Shown: piece after piece, positions 9,028 to 27,834 of the stretch
Position numbering within the stretch: the first letter of the stretch is position 1
Layout of the letters: each line of letters begins with the position of its first letter
Assembly (NCBI GenBank): GCA_025455015.1
Contig: JALONI010000003.1
Coordinates: forward strand, 8,195 to 72,194
Length of the DNA: 64,000 nt
Origin: Cyclobacteriaceae bacterium
GTDB lineage: Bacteria > Bacteroidota > Bacteroidia > Cytophagales > Cyclobacteriaceae
Direction of reading: 5' to 3'
Made by a program: the position numbers and the translations under genes
The notes under the pieces: generated by a model
What the model was told of the DNA's origin: nothing
What the model saw: only the letters and a program-made list of their open reading frames with translations
Databases searched by the model: none

Positions 9028-11874
9028 TTATTGTTTTTTAATGGCCCGGTACACCACGTCCTGAATGCGCGGCCGGATGTTGGCGGTTAACAACTTGGCG
9101 TTGTTCATGTTGGGGTGTACGCGGTTGGAAAGAAACACATACACCACCTCGGCTGCCGGATCTACCCACAGGCATGTGCCCGTAAAGCCGGTGTGCCCAA
9201 AGGTGAGGGAGGAGGCCCGTTCCGTTACCGGATTGGATTTGTCGCCCAGCAGGGGACCATCCCAGCCAAGGGCGCGCCTGCTGTTGGCATATTGCCTTCG
9301 GGTGAACAGGTCCACCGTTTCAGGCCGGTAGTACTCCATCCCGCCATAGCGGCCCTTTTGCAACAGCATTTGGCCGAGTTTGGCAAGGTCGCGGGCGGTG
9401 CCAAACAACCCGGCATGGCCCGCTATGCCTCCGTGCATGGCCGCGCCCTGGTCGTGCACATAGCCGATCAACAGCGATTTCCGAAACAACGTGTCATCTT
9501 CGGTGGGGGCTATGCAGGCCGCATCAAACCGCGTGCGTGGCAGGTAGCCCAGCGTGCCGGCCCCGAGTGGCTCGTACAGGTTTTGTTCCAAAAACTCTTC
9601 CATGGGCTGGTTGAGAAACTTTTCAGCCAGGCGATGCAACAGGTAAAAGCCCATGTCGCTGTAGCGATAATCATGCGGGGTGCGCACCGGCTTTTCGCGC
9701 ACTTTGGCCTTCACAATCCAACTCCACAAACTGTCTTTCATGGCTTTGGAGGCAAACAGGTTGTCGGCTACCGGAAAGGGGAAGTCGGGTGATGGTTCGG
9801 CCCGGTAGTAAAAGGTGTGCAGGGTGTCTTTGACGGTTTCGGCCCAAAACGGCAGAAATGGCCAAAGCCCGGCCTGGTGCGTGAGGATGTCTTTGAGCGT
9901 GTAGTCTTTTTTGTTCGAGTTTTTCAGTTCCGGCAGGTAGTAGGAGGCTTTTTTGTGGATGTCAATAAGCCCGCGGTCATACAAAAACATGATGGCCTGC
10001 AGCGTGGCCGCTACCTTGGTGATGGACGCCAGGTCGTACACGGTTTCATCGCTTACGCGGATGCGCTTGTCGTACGTAAGCCACCCGTATGATTTTTCAA
10101 ATACGACCTTTCCTTTGTGGGCCACCAGTACGTGGCATCCGGGTGTGGCGCCCATGGCGATGGCCTCTTCGGCAATGGCGTCAATGCGGGCCAGCGTGTC
10201 GCTGCTCATGCCGGTGGCTTCGGGCAACGCAAAACCCAATCGCTGCAAAGGGGTTGTGGCTAACGACAAGCCTGCGGGCAGCACGTTGGTTCGCACGGGC
10301 AACTCGCCTCGCGCGGGCAACGCGCCAAACAAAATCTGCGCGGTGGCCTTGGCGGCCCGCTCGGTGGCCTGATAGCCCGCCAGCAGCGTGAAATCGGGCA
10401 GCAGCCCATCCAGTAAAAAGGGATTTCCGAAGTGGCAAACGTAGACCATGCGCGATCGCTTCGCCAGCCGGGCCAGCACCTCCGTGGCCAGGTGCTCGGC
10501 CGAGGGATACACGCTTACTAAGAAGACCGCCTCGGCCCGGGCCGCGGGTAAGGCCGTGGTGTCCGCGGGCTTTGTCACATGCACCGTTTGCAGGGGCACA
10601 TATTTTTTCAAATAGCGCTCCCAGGGCTCGGCTTCCTCGGGCGTGCCGATGGTCACTGAAACGAATGTGCGATTGTCGAGCCACGTGATGGGCAATTCCT
10701 GCGTTTGGTTCACTACCGTGATGGCCTGCTCAAATACCTCCTCGGCCAGCCGGGCCGCGGGGCGGTGCGCACCCAAGGTTTTTGCGGCTCCGCGGTCCAC
10801 CAGGCGCGATTGTGACAGCCCCGCTTCGTATTTGGCTTCCAATATTTTTTTTGCCGAGGCGGCCACTTGGTCGCGCAGTTTTTTGTTGCGTTTGATGGCC
10901 TTGCTCAGTTTTTTCACCACCACGCTCGGGTCGCCCGGGTTCATGAGCACATCGTGGCCCGCCTCCAAGGCCAGCAAGGCCGCTTCGCCCGGGCGCGCTT
11001 TGGCCGTCAGCTTGGCCACGGTGGGAACATCCGCGAACGTGAGCCCCCGAAAGCCCAGCTTTTGTTTTAAGAAATCATTGATGACCACGGTAGAAACCGG
11101 TGCAGGGATCACGTTCTTTTTTTCCACGCTGGTGAAGTGCAAATACGAGGTGAGCACTCCGCCAATGCCGTGGCGTATCAACTCGATGTAGGGATAAAAC
11201 CCCAGCGTATCCAGCAAAGCCGTGTTGATTTGCACCGCGGTATCTACGGTGGCCGGTTCAACCGCTTGATGGGCATGGGTAGCCACGGCCATCACGCCCC
11301 CCTGTTGAAGTCCGTTGGCGTAGGCCACCGCCTTGCGCGCCACACGAAATTTATCGTTGGAGAGATACGACAAAAAGCGGTTGTGCGTGGTGGGCACGTC
11401 TACATCGGCTTGCGGGGCAAAGGTGATGTGTACACCCAATTGGCGCAGTAGCTTGGCATTTTCAAATCCCACTGCCCCCACCAGGCTGTCGTTCTTCAAG
11501 GCCCCCAGCACGATCGGGGGCGGCAGTCTGATCAGGCTATCCAGCGTTTGACCCGGTCCGTACTCGGCATCCATGGCCACCAACAGCGGCACGGGCGTCA
11601 GCGTCTGCAAAAAATTGACTGTGTTCACGTGACGAACAGGCGTGCCGGCTGTTATCCATACGCTGCCCGGGCGCCAGGTGCGCAGGTGACGTTCAAACGC
11701 AAGCAAGGCTTCGGGTGTGGCGGGGGCCGGGGCGCGTAGCATAATCAGCTGCCCGACCTGCTCACGCAACGTCAGCGTCCGGAAAACACTGTCCACCCAG
11801 ATGGTTTTTTCAGTCTGTGCGAGAGCCGGGGCGGCAAGCAGCGAAATGACTACCAGGAGGCAAACTTTTTTCAC
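9028..11874 (-). CDS. Exported GH3-like domain (degenerate active site) fused to a beta-lactamase-family serine hydrolase
   Basis: GTG start, then KKVCLLVVISLLAAPALA-Q. GH3 N-domain (LTLREQVGQL, DAEYG, GFRGLTFAD); C-terminal ASITK, YSD and GHTGFTG motifs. Confidence 0.88.
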   Translation of the reverse strand: MKKVCLLVVISLLAAPALAQTEKTIWVDSVFRTLTLREQVGQLIMLRAPAPATPEALLAFERHLRTWRPGSVWITAGTPVRHVNTVNFLQTLTPVPLLVAMDAEYGPGQTLDSLIRLPPPIVLGALKNDSLVGAVGFENAKLLRQLGVHITFAPQADVDVPTTHNRFLSYLSNDKFRVARKAVAYANGLQQGGVMAVATHAHQAVEPATVDTAVQINTALLDTLGFYPYIELIRHGIGGVLTSYLHFTSVEKKNVIPAPVSTVVINDFLKQKLGFRGLTFADVPTVAKLTAKARPGEAALLALEAGHDVLMNPGDPSVVVKKLSKAIKRNKKLRDQVAASAKKILEAKYEAGLSQSRLVDRGAAKTLGAHRPAARLAEEVFEQAITVVNQTQELPITWLDNRTFVSVTIGTPEEAEPWERYLKKYVPLQTVHVTKPADTTALPAARAEAVFLVSVYPSAEHLATEVLARLAKRSRMVYVCHFGNPFLLDGLLPDFTLLAGYQATERAAKATAQILFGALPARGELPVRTNVLPAGLSLATTPLQRLGFALPEATGMSSDTLARIDAIAEEAIAMGATPGCHVLVAHKGKVVFEKSYGWLTYDKRIRVSDETVYDLASITKVAATLQAIMFLYDRGLIDIHKKASYYLPELKNSNKKDYTLKDILTHQAGLWPFLPFWAETVKDTLHTFYYRAEPSPDFPFPVADNLFASKAMKDSLWSWIVKAKVREKPVRTPHDYRYSDMGFYLLHRLAEKFLNQPMEEFLEQNLYEPLGAGTLGYLPRTRFDAACIAPTEDDTLFRKSLLIGYVHDQGAAMHGGIAGHAGLFGTARDLAKLGQMLLQKGRYGGMEYYRPETVDLFTRRQYANSRRALGWDGPLLGDKSNPVTERASSLTFGHTGFTGTCLWVDPAAEVVYVFLSNRVHPNMNNAKLLTANIRPRIQDVVYRAIKKQ

Positions 11875-22391: not shown

Positions 22392-23548
22392 GGCAGGGCG
22401 CGATGAAAATACAAGGTGTGCCGGGGAAGCAGTTGTGGGTGGGCGATCTTCACCAGGTCTTTGAGGATGAGATCGGGCCGCAGGTAGCCCAGTTCCAAAA
22501 ACTCACTTCCGCCTTTGGCCCCGGTGCGTGCGTTGTACGAGTACACACGCTTATTTTGAAAGGCATCGAAGAGGGCATACCGGCTGTCGGTGTTTTTGAT
22601 TTCCGCCCGCGAGGTGTAGGAGGCAACTCCGATCCAATAATCCGCGTGCTTGGCCCGCGTGTACACCGCTTCAAACGAAAGTTCTAAATAGCCCTGGGTG
22701 GAGTCCGCCTGCCATAAATAGTCATAGCCCGCATCGCGCAGCAAACGGGCTGCATAGTTTTGCCCACCGGGCAGAAACCATCCATCGCCATAGGCAATGC
22801 CACTGAACACCGTTGGTTTTCGGGTGTCGGTCACCAGGGCTTGCGTACGCAGATATTCGTTTTCAATCATGGCAAAGACCGAGTCGGCCTGTTTTTCGCG
22901 GCCCAGCAGTGCCCCCATCAGCTTGATCCATTCGGCACGTCCCAGGGGGTGCTTCTCCAGGTATTCTGCGTTGATGACCACGGGTATGCCCAGGTCACTG
23001 ATTTTCCTGAGCTGCCCCAAATCCTTGGTCATGGTGTACCCCATCACCACTTCGGGTTTAAGCGAAAAGAGCCTTTCCAGATCCATGCCCTTGTCGATCC
23101 CCAAGTCCGCCACTTTGCCCGCATCAATACGCTGCCGCATGACGGGCGAGCTGATGTAGTCAGTGGTCGGAAAACCGATGAGCACGTGGCTGCCGCCCAG
23201 GTAGTCGAGTAAAGGGATATGGGTGGTGGAGGTACACACCAGGGAGCTGACGGGCACTTCAATGATAGTCGTCTGCTTGTCTGTTTGGGGCGGTGTCGTG
23301 CCTTTGGGCACCAGCAGATAGCTGTACCCTTCGGTGGCGTTGAGGTGGGGATACGTGACGGTTACCCGCGTGACGGTACCTTCCCGTTGCAGGCGAAAAC
23401 CGGTGGCGTAGCGAAGGGAATCGCGCCCGGGCGTAGCAGCGGTGGGCGGCTGATCGCGCCCGCATGCCATCAGAATAACGACCAACGCCCAGGTGCCAGC
23501 GGCAAAGGACGGAAAGAAGCGAGAATGGATACGGCTATTCGCGGTCAT
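22388..23548 (-). CDS. Cobalamin/iron-complex ABC substrate-binding lipoprotein (BtuF-like)
   Basis: Lipobox ILMA-C; LRYATGF, VCTSTTH, AEYLEKHPLGRAEW, RPDLILKDL. Confidence 0.88.
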   Translation of the reverse strand: MTANSRIHSRFFPSFAAGTWALVVILMACGRDQPPTAATPGRDSLRYATGFRLQREGTVTRVTVTYPHLNATEGYSYLLVPKGTTPPQTDKQTTIIEVPVSSLVCTSTTHIPLLDYLGGSHVLIGFPTTDYISSPVMRQRIDAGKVADLGIDKGMDLERLFSLKPEVVMGYTMTKDLGQLRKISDLGIPVVINAEYLEKHPLGRAEWIKLMGALLGREKQADSVFAMIENEYLRTQALVTDTRKPTVFSGIAYGDGWFLPGGQNYAARLLRDAGYDYLWQADSTQGYLELSFEAVYTRAKHADYWIGVASYTSRAEIKNTDSRYALFDAFQNKRVYSYNARTGAKGGSEFLELGYLRPDLILKDLVKIAHPQLLPRHTLYFHRALP

Positions 23549-24554
23549 GCGGGTACACGTTTTTCATCAATTGCCGCGCTGCCGAGGGCGCGCTGAGTTT
23601 TTTTGATTTGACCAGGGCATTCATCTGTTCTTGCTGTTGTTTCAGGTTGGCCGATCGGTTTATTTGTTCGTAGATCAGTCGTTGCACCGCTTCGGCAAAC
23701 CATGCTTCGGCTTGGTGTTCGCGTTGGAGATCAAAAAAACCACTGCGCTGGGTGTGCGCCCGGTAGTGCTCGGCTTGTTGCCACACGTCAGCGATGCCTT
23801 CGCCCGTCAGGGCCGAGGTGGTTAATACGGGCACTTTCCACCCCGAGTCGGGCAGGGGGAACAAATGCAAGGCGTGAAGCAAATCTGTTTTGGCCTGCCG
23901 GATACGCGATAGATTATCGCCATCGGCTTTCGTCAGCACGAGCGCATCGGCCATTTCCAGGATGCCCTTTTTGATGCCTTGCAGCTCATCGCCAGCACCG
24001 GCCAGCAGCAGCAAAATGAAAAAGTCTACCATGCTGCGCACACCCGCTTCCAATTGGCCAATGCCCACGGTTTCGATGACGATCACCTCGTACCCGGCCG
24101 CTTCGCAAAGCACCATTGCCTCGCGTGTGCCGTGCGCCACTCCGTTTAGTGCTTCGCCCGAGGCGCTGGGGCGAATGAACGCGCGCGGGTTTCGGGTCAG
24201 TGTATCCATACGGGTTTTGTCGCCCAAAATGCTACCATGGGTACGTTGGCTGCTGGGGTCAATGGTGAGCACCGCGATCTTTTTTCCGGCCACGTTGGTC
24301 ACGTGCTGGCCCAACGCCTCAATAAACGTGCTCTTGCCCACGCCCGGCACCCCGGTAATGGCCAGGCGAAAGGCATGGCCGGAGAACGGCAGCAATGCTT
24401 CCACCAACGCTTCCGCCAGCGCCTGGTCAGTCGGGCGTTGGCTCTCCATCAGCGTGATGGCACGACTGAGCACAGGGGTATTGCCGCTGCGAATACCGTG
24501 GATGTACTCGGCCAGTGTGAGTCGCCCGGGTGCTGCGGGTGGATGGGATTGCAT
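23535..24554 (-). CDS. meaB: Methylmalonyl-CoA mutase-associated GTPase
   Basis: ITGVPGVGKST, IDPSS, SILGDKTRM, IETVGIGQ, GDELQGIKKG, TKADG. Confidence 0.93.
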   Translation of the reverse strand: MQSHPPAAPGRLTLAEYIHGIRSGNTPVLSRAITLMESQRPTDQALAEALVEALLPFSGHAFRLAITGVPGVGKSTFIEALGQHVTNVAGKKIAVLTIDPSSQRTHGSILGDKTRMDTLTRNPRAFIRPSASGEALNGVAHGTREAMVLCEAAGYEVIVIETVGIGQLEAGVRSMVDFFILLLLAGAGDELQGIKKGILEMADALVLTKADGDNLSRIRQAKTDLLHALHLFPLPDSGWKVPVLTTSALTGEGIADVWQQAEHYRAHTQRSGFFDLQREHQAEAWFAEAVQRLIYEQINRSANLKQQQEQMNALVKSKKLSAPSAARQLMKNVYPHDRE

Positions 24555-24557
24555 GGC

Positions 24558-24575
24558 GTAAATTTCTAAATTTAC
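24558..24575. promoter_or_regulatory. Perfect 8-bp inverted repeat in the 39-bp meaB/CHASE2 divergent gap
   Basis: GTAAATTT-CT-AAATTTAC. Confidence 0.4.
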
Positions 24576-24593
24576 TCGTTCTGAGGATATCCT

Positions 24594-25937
24594 ATGCGAA
24601 AGAATGTATTTCAAGCGGCCGCCATCACGGTGTTTGTGTTTGCCATGATGTGGTTTGTGTCGAAGATCACCGACTTTAAGTTTTTCAACGCTTTTGATCC
24701 TATTTCGCAGGCGCTGTCGGACTTTGAGTTGACGGACTATGCCTTTTCAAACCTGCGGCCCGACCCCCTGGTGGATCAGCGGATCGTGGTGGTCAACATC
24801 GGGCCGCTACCGCGGATGGGCCTGGCCCAGCAAATCAGCCTGATCAGCCAATACAAACCCAAAGCCATCGGGTTGGATGTGTACGTGGGTTGCGAGGGCG
24901 GGCTGCGCGACTCCATCAATTGCCGGCCACTGCTCGATACGCTCGGTAACCTGATGTTGAGCAACGCCATTCAGGAAGCGGGCAACGTGGTGATCGTATC
25001 CAAGTTGTTACAGAAAAAGAGCACCATCAAGGCCGGTCTTTACAATGTGTTAGACTCCGTACAATATGCCGATGACATATTTACCAACCATGCCCACAAT
25101 GCGTTTGCCAACCTCATTACCAATGCCGACTACCAAGACGATGTAAAGTTATGTCGTTCGTATATGCCCTCGTATGTCATTGATGGAAAAACGCACTATG
25201 CCTTCGCTACGCAATTGGCCATGATGTATGACTCGGCCAAGACGCAACGATTTTTGGCGCGCGCCAAAAGAGAAGAACTCATCAACTACCGCGGCAACAT
25301 TGAAGTGCAAGCCATCAAACTGGATGTTGACCGGGAGAAAAAAACATCTACCACCAACTACCCGGTATACTTTTATGCGGTCGATGTCGACCAACTGGCG
25401 CGGGGCGAAGTGCTGGGCGAACTTTTCACCAACTCCATTGTGCTGCTCGGCTACCTGGGCGACTACTTTGGCGACCCCGCCTGGGAGGACAAGTACTTCA
25501 CGCCTCTGAACAAAAAAGTGGCCGGGCGCGCCAACCCCGATATGTTTGGGGTGGTGGTGCACGCCAATATCATCGCCATGATTTTGAACGAAGACTACGT
25601 GGACGAGTTGGCCGAGTGGCAGAAATATGCCATCTCCATTGTGCTCTGCTTTTTGACGGTGTTGTTTTTTATCTACCTGGATACCCACTACCAGCGGTGG
25701 TTTGATGCGGCTTCCGTGGGCGTGCAGATACTTCAATTGATCCTCATTTCGCTGTTGATCATGGAGGTGTACGCGTTGTACAGCTTCAAACTCGATTTGA
25801 CAATCACGCTGGCGTCCACGGCCCTGGTGGGTCCGTGTTACGATGTGTACAAGAGCGTGCAAAACGAGATTAACTACCGGCTTACCAAACGCAGACGGGC
25901 GGCATTAAACCGTCAAAAACAAGAGAACTTGGCATGA
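24594..25937 (+). CDS. CHASE2-domain membrane sensor with no cytoplasmic output domain
   Basis: N-terminal TM; RIVVVNI, PKAIGLDV, IVLLG and GVVVHANIIAMIL CHASE2 motifs; three C-terminal TMs; only about 30 aa of basic tail. Confidence 0.85.
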   Translation: MRKNVFQAAAITVFVFAMMWFVSKITDFKFFNAFDPISQALSDFELTDYAFSNLRPDPLVDQRIVVVNIGPLPRMGLAQQISLISQYKPKAIGLDVYVGCEGGLRDSINCRPLLDTLGNLMLSNAIQEAGNVVIVSKLLQKKSTIKAGLYNVLDSVQYADDIFTNHAHNAFANLITNADYQDDVKLCRSYMPSYVIDGKTHYAFATQLAMMYDSAKTQRFLARAKREELINYRGNIEVQAIKLDVDREKKTSTTNYPVYFYAVDVDQLARGEVLGELFTNSIVLLGYLGDYFGDPAWEDKYFTPLNKKVAGRANPDMFGVVVHANIIAMILNEDYVDELAEWQKYAISIVLCFLTVLFFIYLDTHYQRWFDAASVGVQILQLILISLLIMEVYALYSFKLDLTITLASTALVGPCYDVYKSVQNEINYRLTKRRRAALNRQKQENLA

Positions 25938-25978
25938 TTTTTCCTTTACCCACCCCGCTTTTGAACTCGACACCCTAC

Positions 25979-26860
25979 ATGAAAAAGACCTTTCTGCTGC
26001 TTTTTTGGACGATTTTGACGTTGGAGGTGGCCCGGGCGCAGGACTACACGTTTCGCGTGTTGGCCACCAAGGGTACCAGCCAAGTGAAAACGGGCGGGGC
26101 CTGGCAGCCGCTGAAAACGGGCGCCAAGCTCCAGACGAATGACGAGTTGAAGCTGGACGCCAATGCCTATGTGGCGCTGGTGCACAAAAGCGGCACACCC
26201 TTGCAATTGAAAGAAAAAGACACGTACCAGGTTTCCGCGCTCGCGTCCAAGGTGGGCCCCGGCTCCAGCGTAGTGAGCAAATACACCGATTTTATCTTGA
26301 GCAGCAACTCGGACGAAGCACGGAAAAACCGCATGGCCGCCACCGGGGCTGTCACCCGTGGGGGCGATATCAAGATTCTGTTGCCCAAAGGAAAGGCGGC
26401 TGTCTATTTTGATCCGGCCGTATTCATCACCTGGGAGGCACAACCGGGCGTGACCCACTATGTGCTGATCGTCAAAGACCTGGTGGATACTGAACTTTCG
26501 CGCCAGGAAGTAGCGGGCAACAGCGTGGTACTGGATTTAGGTAAAGACACCTACGCAGGCACGCCCGTGGTGATGGTGGAAGTGCACACCCAAGGCTCGG
26601 CAAAGAAGTCAGAGCCGTACGCCATCAAAAAAGTGGCTACCGCAGAATATGAACGCGTGAAAACCCTGCTGGCCGACCTGGGCGGCCGCGCCACCAGCGA
26701 AGATGCCCTGGACCAATACATCATGGCCGGATTTTACGAACAGAACAAACTACTCATTGATGCCCAAAAGAGCTATCACCACGTGCTGACGCAATTGCCC
26801 GATGTGGCCGAATTCCGGGAGGCATACAAAGATTTTTTATTCCGAAACAAACTCAACTAA
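25979..26860 (+). CDS. Exported FecR-like/DUF928-like protein, paralog 1
   Basis: Signal peptide ending VARA-Q; beta-rich N-domain, conserved KYTDFILSSNSDE...KNRMAATG linker, TPR-like C-terminal helices. Alternative start at 25934 has an ATGA overlap with the CHASE2 stop. Confidence 0.7.
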   Translation: MKKTFLLLFWTILTLEVARAQDYTFRVLATKGTSQVKTGGAWQPLKTGAKLQTNDELKLDANAYVALVHKSGTPLQLKEKDTYQVSALASKVGPGSSVVSKYTDFILSSNSDEARKNRMAATGAVTRGGDIKILLPKGKAAVYFDPAVFITWEAQPGVTHYVLIVKDLVDTELSRQEVAGNSVVLDLGKDTYAGTPVVMVEVHTQGSAKKSEPYAIKKVATAEYERVKTLLADLGGRATSEDALDQYIMAGFYEQNKLLIDAQKSYHHVLTQLPDVAEFREAYKDFLFRNKLN

Positions 26861-26876
26861 CCGAAACGAGATCCCT

Positions 26877-27785
26877 ATGAAAAAGAATATTCTGACGATG
26901 TTGTTGAGCGTGGGCACGCTGGGCGTGTTTGCGCAAGAGTACGTCTTCAAGGTATTGGCCAACAAAGGGGCCAACGAAGTCAAAACCAGCGAAGGATGGA
27001 CACCCATTAAAACCGGGGCCAGCTTGAAGCAAACCGATGAATTGAAGATCGTAGACAACGCCTACATGGGGTTGGTGCACTCCACCGGTAAGCCCATTGA
27101 GATCAAACAGGCCGGCAACTACTCCATCGCCCAGTTGGCCTCCAAGATCACCGCGGGCACCAGTGTGATGAACAAATACACCGACTTTATTTTGAGTTCC
27201 AACTCAGACGAAGGAAAGAAGAACCGGATGGCGGCCACCGGGTCCGTGTCGCGTGCGGTCGGTGCCGGGGCGTTAAAGGTGTTTATGCCGCCCGCCCAGG
27301 CAGCCGGTGTTTTTGGAAACACTGCGGTCGTCAACTGGGAGGCGCGTGAGAACGCCAGCCCGTATGTGGTGACTGTGCGAGACATGGAGGATAATGTGTT
27401 GTTCACCACAGAAACACCCCAAACCCAAATGGTACTTGATCTGAGTGACGCTACGTTCGCTTCGCAGACGGCCGTGCTGGTGGAGGTGCGCACCAAGGCA
27501 GACGCCAAAACCCTATCGGAACGATACGTGATCAAACGATTGAACAATGCCAACAAAGACAAGATCAAAAAATTGTATGCCACCGATTTGGGAGCGGGGG
27601 TAGAAGAAGAGTCCGCCTTAAATAAAATTGTGTTGGCGTCTTTTTATGAGCAGAATGGACTACTGATCGATGCCATTGCCGCGTATGAGCAGGCCATCAA
27701 GTTGGCCCCCGAGGTGCAGGATTACAAAGATGCCTATGCCGGATTTTTGGCACGAAACGGCATCAAGGCCGAAGAGAAGAAATAA
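26877..27785 (+). CDS. Exported FecR-like/DUF928-like protein, paralog 2
   Basis: Signal peptide ending GVFA-Q; colinear with paralog 1 along its whole length. Confidence 0.75.
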   Translation: MKKNILTMLLSVGTLGVFAQEYVFKVLANKGANEVKTSEGWTPIKTGASLKQTDELKIVDNAYMGLVHSTGKPIEIKQAGNYSIAQLASKITAGTSVMNKYTDFILSSNSDEGKKNRMAATGSVSRAVGAGALKVFMPPAQAAGVFGNTAVVNWEARENASPYVVTVRDMEDNVLFTTETPQTQMVLDLSDATFASQTAVLVEVRTKADAKTLSERYVIKRLNNANKDKIKKLYATDLGAGVEEESALNKIVLASFYEQNGLLIDAIAAYEQAIKLAPEVQDYKDAYAGFLARNGIKAEEKK

Positions 27786-27802
27786 CCCGCTTTTCAGCAC
27801 TG

Positions 27803-27834
27803 AAAAAAACCCCCGTCCGAAGCGGGGGTTTTTT
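27803..27834. terminator. Intrinsic terminator
   Basis: AAAAAAACCCCCG-tccgaag-CGGGGGTTTTTT directly after paralog 2. Confidence 0.85.

Follow-up and report, generated by a model that had tools for sequence, protein, structure and literature searches.

The window analysed here is a stretch of 64,000 nucleotides from a Cyclobacteriaceae bacterium (assembly GCA_025455015.1, contig JALONI010000003.1, positions 8,195 to 72,194), and its subject is a three-gene operon that encodes a CHASE2 membrane protein and two secreted paralogs, here called partner A and partner B. The CHASE2 protein has no output domain. It is a genuine conserved form of this receptor rather than a copy that has been truncated. 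One CHASE2 gene and one partner gene make up the conserved unit, and the third gene arose by tandem duplication within the lineage. The partner resembles MtxA of Magnetospirillum in predicted fold, and we lean, by a small measure, toward a general picture in which the pair is an envelope-confined, output-less variant of a CHASE2/MtxA-like module. The parts of the operon on which the argument rests are as follows.

24594-27834, plus strand: three-gene operon and terminator (from the table of open reading frames and gene spacing)
24594-25937, plus strand: stand-alone CHASE2 membrane protein, 447 amino acids (aa) (PF05226, structure model)
25979-26860, plus strand: partner A, secreted MtxA-like protein, 293 aa (homolog starts, structure model)
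26877-27785, plus strand: partner B, tandem paralog of A with the same layout, 302 aa (open reading frame, 45% identity)
26279-26359, plus strand: conserved motif of partner A, KYTDFILSSNSDEARKNRMAATGAVTR, ending in G-x-V-x-R with V125 and R127 (translation)
27174-27254, plus strand: conserved motif of partner B, KYTDFILSSNSDEGKKNRMAATGSVSR (translation)

The CHASE2 gene encodes a protein in which PF05226 is the sole Pfam domain (residues 70-354, E 1.4e-18, 67.9 bits against a cut-off of 26.3), and the protein has no match in NCBIfam. Its AlphaFold2 (AF2) model, with a predicted local distance difference test score (pLDDT) of 73, has helices at residues 2-25, 341-365, 370-396 and 403-446. The predicted layout comprises an N-terminal transmembrane (TM) helix, an alpha/beta periplasmic domain at residues ~26-340, three TM helices and a basic tail. 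Because both ends are basic and the helices are placed in this way, the topology is predicted to be N-in, C-in with a periplasmic CHASE2 domain. The modelled protein stops about 25-30 aa past the last TM helix, and a cytoplasmic tail of ~27 residues leaves no room for an output domain; Pfam and NCBIfam detect none in the CHASE2 protein. The first-pass annotation had described a CHASE2 protein with three TM helices and without a kinase, cyclase, PP2C or GGDEF output, and the domain searches and the model agree with it. Its proposal that the output acts in trans holds insofar as the protein itself contains no output; the alternative is an output confined to the envelope.

A homolog search of 5.8 billion proteins returned 1,667 CHASE2 relatives. 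The 120 matches listed all measure 402-456 aa, contain PF05226 and no other Pfam domain, and share 56-93% identity. An output domain is likewise missing from 19 homologs that represent other families and classes of Bacteroidota, and the open frames of CHASE2 genes measure 383-498 aa across the sampled Bacteroidota classes. The ratio of nonsynonymous to synonymous substitution rates (dN/dS) between the CHASE2 gene and its closest relative (L026) is 0.036, and for partners A and B it is 0.10 and 0.10, with dS close to saturation in this comparison. Truncation is excluded because the homologs share both the length and the single domain, and because dN/dS is 0.036. The possibility raised in the first-pass annotation, that homologs carry an output which this copy has lost, is thus answered by listed relatives that are all short and contain PF05226 only.

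Conservation within the CHASE2 protein is concentrated outside the cytoplasm. The residues that are invariant across the phylum (D48, N68, D95, R188, P304, N306, P315, M317, A324 and N325) are all periplasmic, and the TM3-TM4 region and the tail are variable, which argues against a conserved cytoplasmic read-out. Four stretches of low model confidence (27-49, 101-105, 176-186 and 298-317) coincide with the most conserved motifs of the alignment. Three cysteines, C100, C110 and C187 (window positions ~24891-25154), are invariant within the Cytophagales family in the contexts CEGGLRDSxNC and KxCR and are not kept across the phylum; a lineage-specific periplasmic disulfide is a possible reading of this pattern. 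A genome-wide PF05226 scan found a single CHASE2 gene in the source genome.

The association of the two genes is strict. A scan of 185,579 species genomes with a partner profile gave a Cytophagales sample of 80 loci that were kept. Upstream DNA was available for 78 of them, and each of the 78 has a CHASE2 gene directly upstream in the same orientation. In an even set of 301 Bacteroidota genomes, the partner was found in 13, and in 12 of these it is immediately downstream of a short CHASE2 gene; one pair of this set (G004) is split by a contig break. Four further genomes of the set have a short CHASE2 gene and no match to the partner profile, and clustering of open reading frames identified a divergent partner downstream in each of the four. 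The pair is also present in fifteen loci fetched from the phylum sample and in five from further genomes. Outside the Cytophagales sample, partner and CHASE2 gene are thus neighbours in loci from 19 other Bacteroidota genomes, the one with the contig break included. The arrangement is far beyond chance because it recurs in every related locus examined, so that the partners are linked to CHASE2 genes elsewhere as they are here. The distribution is patchy: the pair occurs in ~5-7% of sampled Bacteroidota genomes and is missing from sister genera of the same family. Among the carriers of the output-less form are harmless soil bacteria that have been cultured, such as Chryseosolibacter histidini and C. 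indicus.

Duplication of the partner is recurrent. Of the 80 Cytophagales loci, 19 have two tandem partners. To explain the maximum-likelihood tree built from 113 partners, at least four independent duplications are needed; the one in this window is common only to the two closest relatives (L026 and L027). The description of the locus as an uncharacterised three-component module therefore needs revision in its count of components: it is uncharacterised, and its core is a pair whose partner has been duplicated at least four times. When neighbouring open reading frames were clustered in 21 loci of distinct lineages, no conserved third gene was found beside the pair except proteases of the C14 (caspase) and CHAT types. 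The other neighbours represent local synteny (MeaB, sucD, UvrD, NfeD/SPFH, M16 peptidases and cargo of the type IX secretion system). The reverse duplication was seen in another class, where two loci (L008 and L009 of genomes G045 and G273) have two tandem CHASE2 genes of ~415 aa each followed by a single partner, which hints at heteromeric assemblies. Genes of one cluster (c7) lie directly beside the pair in two unrelated families, f36 and f3 (L011:7188-8486, L012 and L014; in L016 they begin at 10457 and at 11774). By eye, the L011 member resembles an insulinase-type (M16) peptidase, and the adjacency could be due to chance or could be a second protease link.

The window sequence contains the two colinear secreted paralogs that had been described after the CHASE2 gene, and these are the only partner genes of the source genome. 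An ATG at 25934, which overlaps the CHASE2 stop codon as ATGA, had been suggested as a possible start of partner A. The overlap exists, and it was rejected as the true start: the start at 25979 is preferred because every homolog begins at the MKK of the signal peptide. The gap between the CHASE2 gene and partner A is thus probably 41 nt. Partner B starts 16 nt past the stop of partner A. The two proteins are 45% identical over 302 aa (E 4e-89), with 71% identity in the motif segment, 50% in the N-terminal beta domain, 41% in the TPR-like helices and 37% in the immunoglobulin (Ig)-like domain. Both retain all 47 invariant positions of the family alignment, and the C-terminal helices with the FYEQN-LLIDA signature, pointed out in the first-pass annotation, are present in both. 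Partner B, more than A, resembles the single-copy partners of other Cytophagales (best tblastn match at most single-copy loci). Any divergence in specificity between A and B would most likely lie in the Ig-like and TPR parts. That the duplication gives two input specificities is speculation, and the Ig-like domain as the most diverged part is consistent with it.

The AF2 model of partner A has a pLDDT of 80.5 and a predicted template modelling score (pTM) of 0.73. It predicts a signal peptide at residues 1-20, cleaved after ARA and before QDY, an all-beta domain at 25-84, helices at 99-108 and 112-121, a low-confidence loop at 123-128, a seven-strand fibronectin type III (Fn3)/Ig-like domain at 147-218 and four TPR-like helices at 221-289. 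The putative signal-peptidase site, AxA|QDY at residues 18-23 (~26030-26047), would leave a mature N-terminal Gln that is near-invariant family-wide. In Bacteroidota, the 'Q-rule' describes the conversion of a mature N-terminal Gln to pyroglutamate, and the near-invariant Gln of the partner would fit this rule.

No Pfam domain describes the partner, for which a homolog search gave 1,696 relatives of ~298 aa. A partner profile run against 1.84 billion cluster representatives with E up to 0.001 matched 1,300 clusters at 50% identity, and among the matches listed nearly all are ~300 aa long and aligned end to end. The identity of the family is best indicated by structure. Foldseek with the partner A model against the PDB ranked 4z29_A, the C-terminal domain of MtxA, at the top (E 9.3e-5, probability 1.00), with a TM-score of 0.51 normalised to the target over 179 columns. 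In the model, the matched part of MtxA corresponds to a C-terminal Ig/Fn3-like domain packed on a TPR-like helical domain. The C-terminus of the partner is a genuine TPR: the phylum-wide partner profile matched OGT and consensus TPR chains (best E 2.2e-8, positions 251-292), and single partner sequences stay below the Pfam TPR cut-offs, with partner B giving a sub-threshold match.

Two other families had been named for comparison with the partner, FecR (PF04773) and DUF928 (PF06051), and neither assignment found support. PF04773 matched none of 52 members at E up to 0.1 and none of 10 distant members at E up to 1, that is, 0 of 62. A genome-wide PF04773 scan of the source genome found two genes other than the partners, and hhalign of the partner against these gave a probability of 0.2%, a weak test with a two-sequence template. 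The sole hint on the FecR side is a sub-threshold match to the NCBIfam LapA retention module (E 3.9e-4, 20.6 bits against a cut-off of 50). DUF928 matched 5 of the 52 members, all below the family cut-off, with a best E of 0.0049. The match of L013, for example, reached 16 bits against a cut-off of 26 and aligned residues 283-336 with positions 127-180 of the 184 in the profile. The DUF928 matches are confined to the C-terminal helices and leave the beta domains and the motif uncovered.

The most conserved element of the partner lies between the N-terminal beta domain and the Ig-like domain. The near-identical linker strings that had been quoted for A and B are exact, at 26279-26359 and 27174-27254. 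In a phylum-wide alignment of 27 partners over the sampled families, with 17-51% identity to A outside its closest relatives, the invariant columns are the start Met, G32, V125, R127, P136 and W152, and G123 is nearly so. G-[AGS]-V-x-R is present in all 113 extracted partner sequences, with a Gly next in most, and G-x-V-x-R is the only motif of the partner that is invariant phylum-wide. The earlier emphasis on a conserved R-x-G linker was correct in its location, and the element that is invariant there across the phylum is G-x-V-x-R. In Cytophagales partners, the whole segment KYTDFILSSNS-EAKKNR-ATGAV-R is almost fully invariant. The AF2 confidence of partner A is lowest exactly at this point (pLDDT below 50 at residues 123-128), and the loop is predicted to be disordered. 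Conserved segments of low confidence in both monomer models fit an interface that folds on binding, and we infer that the GxVxR segment and the conserved CHASE2 loops may form such an interface.

Two unusual partner genes were observed outside the window. At L015:4816-6003 (minus strand, genome G207), a 395-aa variant directly adjoins a C14-TPR caspase gene, and eleven tandem copies of GWGVGDKG replace its helix-helix-GxVxR segment; the canonical partner of the same locus, at L015:7689-8624, retains A-V-S-R-G. With this repeat, the exposed basic loop may have become multi-site. At L113:9157-10059 (genome G199, contig C20), a third partner copy is an orphan: no CHASE2 gene is nearby, its neighbours on the two sides are a Na+/H+ exchanger and a DEAD-box helicase, and its motif has degenerated, reading KASVGTRAVGG instead of G-x-V-x-R.

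Proteases of the caspase family are frequent associates of the pair and not obligate components. A C14 or CHAT gene lies within 10 kb of the pair in 8 of 20 other pair-carrying genomes, from 7 genera, against 0.56 expected from copy numbers (Poisson P ~1e-7, or 2e-6 when genera are counted). The linked proteases combine a signal peptide with Peptidase_C14 and TPR, or with TPR and CHAT, and their genes are adjacent to the pair or a few kb off. G217 and G337 each have a single C14 gene, and in both genomes it abuts the CHASE2 gene. In the source genome, C14 and CHAT genes number three each, and none of the six is on the contig of the window. At least two of its C14 proteins, those on contigs C89 and C152, clearly have signal peptides, and the 667-aa protein on C89 is 46% identical over 278 aa, covering the Ig and caspase parts, to the module-linked caspase of G217. 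The pair of the source genome may be tied to these unlinked proteases.

In the general picture that we slightly favour, the partner would bind the periplasmic domain of the inner-membrane CHASE2 protein, with its invariant helix-helix-GxVxR segment meeting the conserved loops of that domain. Because no conserved part is exposed to the cytoplasm, the function would lie in the envelope, and the complex would work there without making a second messenger. Where exported proteases of the caspase type exist, the pair may tether them, regulate them or be cut by them. Bacterial orthocaspases and metacaspases cleave after Arg or Lys, which makes the exposed Arg of the partner a candidate P1 site, and cleavage, if any, would occur at this residue. 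This protease-cleavage detail is held with much less confidence than the general picture. Taken to its full extent, the reading would state that the ligand of CHASE2 is a protein, the MtxA-like partner with its G-x-V-x-R loop, and no small molecule, and that the circuit of the output-less form is wholly extracytoplasmic, with the complex as a membrane-anchored receptor; exported caspase-family proteases would be recruited or gated by this receptor, or would cleave it. We consider this extended version doubtful and put it forward tentatively. If true, the pair would be a periplasmic counterpart of an adaptor-controlled caspase platform, and duplication of the partner would diversify recognition.

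Several results weigh against the favoured picture or its protease component. The partner would be related to MtxA by predicted fold, layout and gene context, and there is no sequence-level match between them: PF22121 (MtxA_C) matched 2 of the 52 partner members with a best E of 0.063, and 4z29 is absent from PDB searches at E up to 10 with both the close and the phylum-wide partner profiles. Foldseek of the CHASE2 model against the PDB found nothing significant (best E 0.19), and the near-saturation of dS given above qualifies the evidence from selection. Deletion of mtxA in Magnetospirillum gave no phenotype (PMC4439547). On the side of the proteases, 6 of the 20 pair-carrying genomes, from two families, have no C14 or CHAT gene, so a caspase-type protease is neither essential to the pair nor its general partner. 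No such protease is encoded within 9 kb in any of the 80 Cytophagales loci, and the window has none.

Other readings of the pair start from the same data. The CHASE2 protein could be a true transmembrane sensor, whose signal leaves by lateral contacts of the four-helix membrane bundle, or of the short basic tail, with an unlinked kinase, cyclase or other membrane protein, and the partner would then be a ligand-presenting co-receptor, like a periplasmic binding protein. CHASE2 is normally the input domain of kinases and cyclases, and the Cytophagales TM3/TM4 region keeps the polar residues W369, D371, S374 and Q378 and a GPCYD motif. The persistence of the pair in genomes without a caspase or CHAT gene also suits a sensor of this kind. 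However, the TM helices and the tail vary phylum-wide and the periplasmic residues do not, no lineage has a conserved third gene other than the proteases, and no candidate sensor-less kinase or cyclase was identified as a trans output. We regard this sensor as unlikely.

A role without any signalling, as a structural or housekeeping factor of the envelope such as a membrane-anchored scaffold or a chaperone of periplasmic or outer-membrane proteins, with clients bound by the partner's TPR and Ig-like domains, appears quite unlikely. It draws on the position of the Cytophagales operon among housekeeping genes (MeaB-like, sucD) with stable synteny, on the generic protein-binding nature of TPR and Ig-like modules and on the silent mtxA knockout. 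Yet a housekeeping factor would not usually occur as patchily as the pair does, signalling outputs are joined to the same pair elsewhere, and the repeated duplication of the partner is easier to reconcile with diversifying specificity than with a structural role that stays fixed. Finally, the operon could be a decayed receptor that lost its output by truncation, next to unrelated downstream genes, a reading that draws only on the usual fusion of CHASE2 to an output domain. This is extremely improbable in view of the same-length relatives among the matches listed, the low dN/dS, the short frames in all classes sampled and the complete linkage of the partner.

The operon ends in the strong terminator that had been noted from the sequence, and it begins at a short divergent intergenic region.

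~27806-27834, plus strand: intrinsic terminator, AAAAACCCCCG-loop-CGGGGGUUUUUU with a T run after it (GC-rich hairpin, RNA fold)
24555-24593, no strand: divergent intergenic region between a MeaB/ArgK-like gene (minus strand) and the CHASE2 gene (ends of open reading frames)

The predicted fold of the terminator hairpin has an energy of -22.4 kcal/mol (z -2.58). In the intergenic region, two TAAATTT(C/A) words that resemble the -7 promoter element of Bacteroidota were seen by eye and may constitute the promoter of the operon; a sigma-70 scan found no match at 24555-24593. The divergent neighbour is a gene for a MeaB/ArgK-type GTPase at 23535-24614 (minus strand). Its longest open reading frame, from a TTG at 24614, would overlap the CHASE2 start, and the ATG at 24554 (MQSHPP...) is the more likely start, which leaves 39 nt to the CHASE2 gene. 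The gene order ABC-type binding protein, MeaB, CHASE2, partner or partners, sucD is kept in the closest genera (L004 and L005). The source genome is a 3.4-Mb assembly of 154 contigs that is 96% complete, and its closest relatives are Ohtaekwangia-like Cytophagales metagenome-assembled genomes. The operon sequence was found in two DNA metagenome runs only, one of them from a wetland, and no RNA run matched it.

CHASE2 was defined as a sensor domain in 2003 (Zhulin et al. 2003, as cited in PMC8195603), and the searchable literature names no ligand for it. The closest known system is the mtx cluster of M. gryphiswaldense. MtxA (MGR_0208, PDB 4Z29) is a 313-aa secreted protein whose gene lies next to that of a CHASE2 adenylate/guanylate cyclase (PMC4439547, PMC5088516). 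Its crystal structure is solved, its function is not known, and the authors who described it detected no homologous proteins (PMC4439547). Both systems have a secreted protein of ~300 aa with a signal peptide, an N-terminal beta region, an exposed linker, an Ig/Fn3-like domain and TPR-like helices, and in both a gene of the partner type adjoins a CHASE2 membrane-protein gene. In MtxA, trypsin cleaves in the linker just before the Ig-like domain (PMC4439547). The CHASE2 protein of the mtx cluster has a cyclase output and that of the window has none; the partner is duplicated in the window; the MtxA gene precedes the CHASE2 gene, whereas CHASE2 comes first here; and the mtx cluster is proteobacterial, in contrast to the Bacteroidota operon.

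The 'BiofilmReg' operon of Burkholderia encodes a response regulator, a LysM-FecR periplasmic protein and a CHASE2 histidine kinase, and disruption of the response-regulator gene gave a biofilm-deficient strain (PMC5192318). This suggests that such pairs of CHASE2 and accessory proteins can belong to one signalling unit. In both cases, a secreted accessory protein and a CHASE2 membrane protein are encoded together. The accessory protein of Burkholderia has LysM and FecR (PF04773) domains and the partner here has neither, and the CHASE2 protein there is joined to PAS-HisKA-HATPase and a cognate regulator, which are absent here. With the DUF928 proteins of cyanobacteria, which the first-pass annotation places next to CHASE2 genes together with CHAT proteins, some partner members share weak profile matches at the C-terminus, which suggests a similar helical C-terminus.

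Caspase-type proteases have been connected with CHASE2 before, though published papers mention the association only in passing. Metacaspase-CHASE2 fusions occur in cyanobacteria (PMC3501461), EACC2-caspase-CHASE2 proteins have been described (PMC8195603), and Psychroflexus torquis has a metacaspase island with a CHASE2 protein (PMC3914696). The present family resembles these systems in the exported C14 or CHAT genes that lie beside the pair in at least 7 Bacteroidota genera, and it differs from them in the window and the 80 Cytophagales loci, which have no linked protease. The caspase of the fusions is cytoplasmic, whereas the pair-linked proteases whose N-termini could be read have signal peptides. 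The three papers do not describe an MtxA-like partner. In the literature on CHASE2 with FecR, CHAT or caspase, no account was found of output-less CHASE2 proteins or of their Bacteroidota partners, nor were the strict pairing, the G-x-V-x-R signature and the recurrent duplication of the partner found described.

The literature so far records a CHASE2 receptor with an MtxA-type companion only as a gene neighbourhood without explanation. In the large family of output-less CHASE2 proteins described here, an MtxA-like protein is invariably encoded alongside, and this output-less form is the simplest version of the CHASE2/partner system. What the comparison adds to the known systems is the protease-free, duplicated form of Cytophagales, the statistics of linkage and enrichment, and the carriers that have no caspase-family protease at all. 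The enrichment of proteases near the pair offers a lead on the role of bacterial extracytoplasmic caspase homologs. What CHASE2 domains sense becomes, in this way, a defined question of binding and cleavage.

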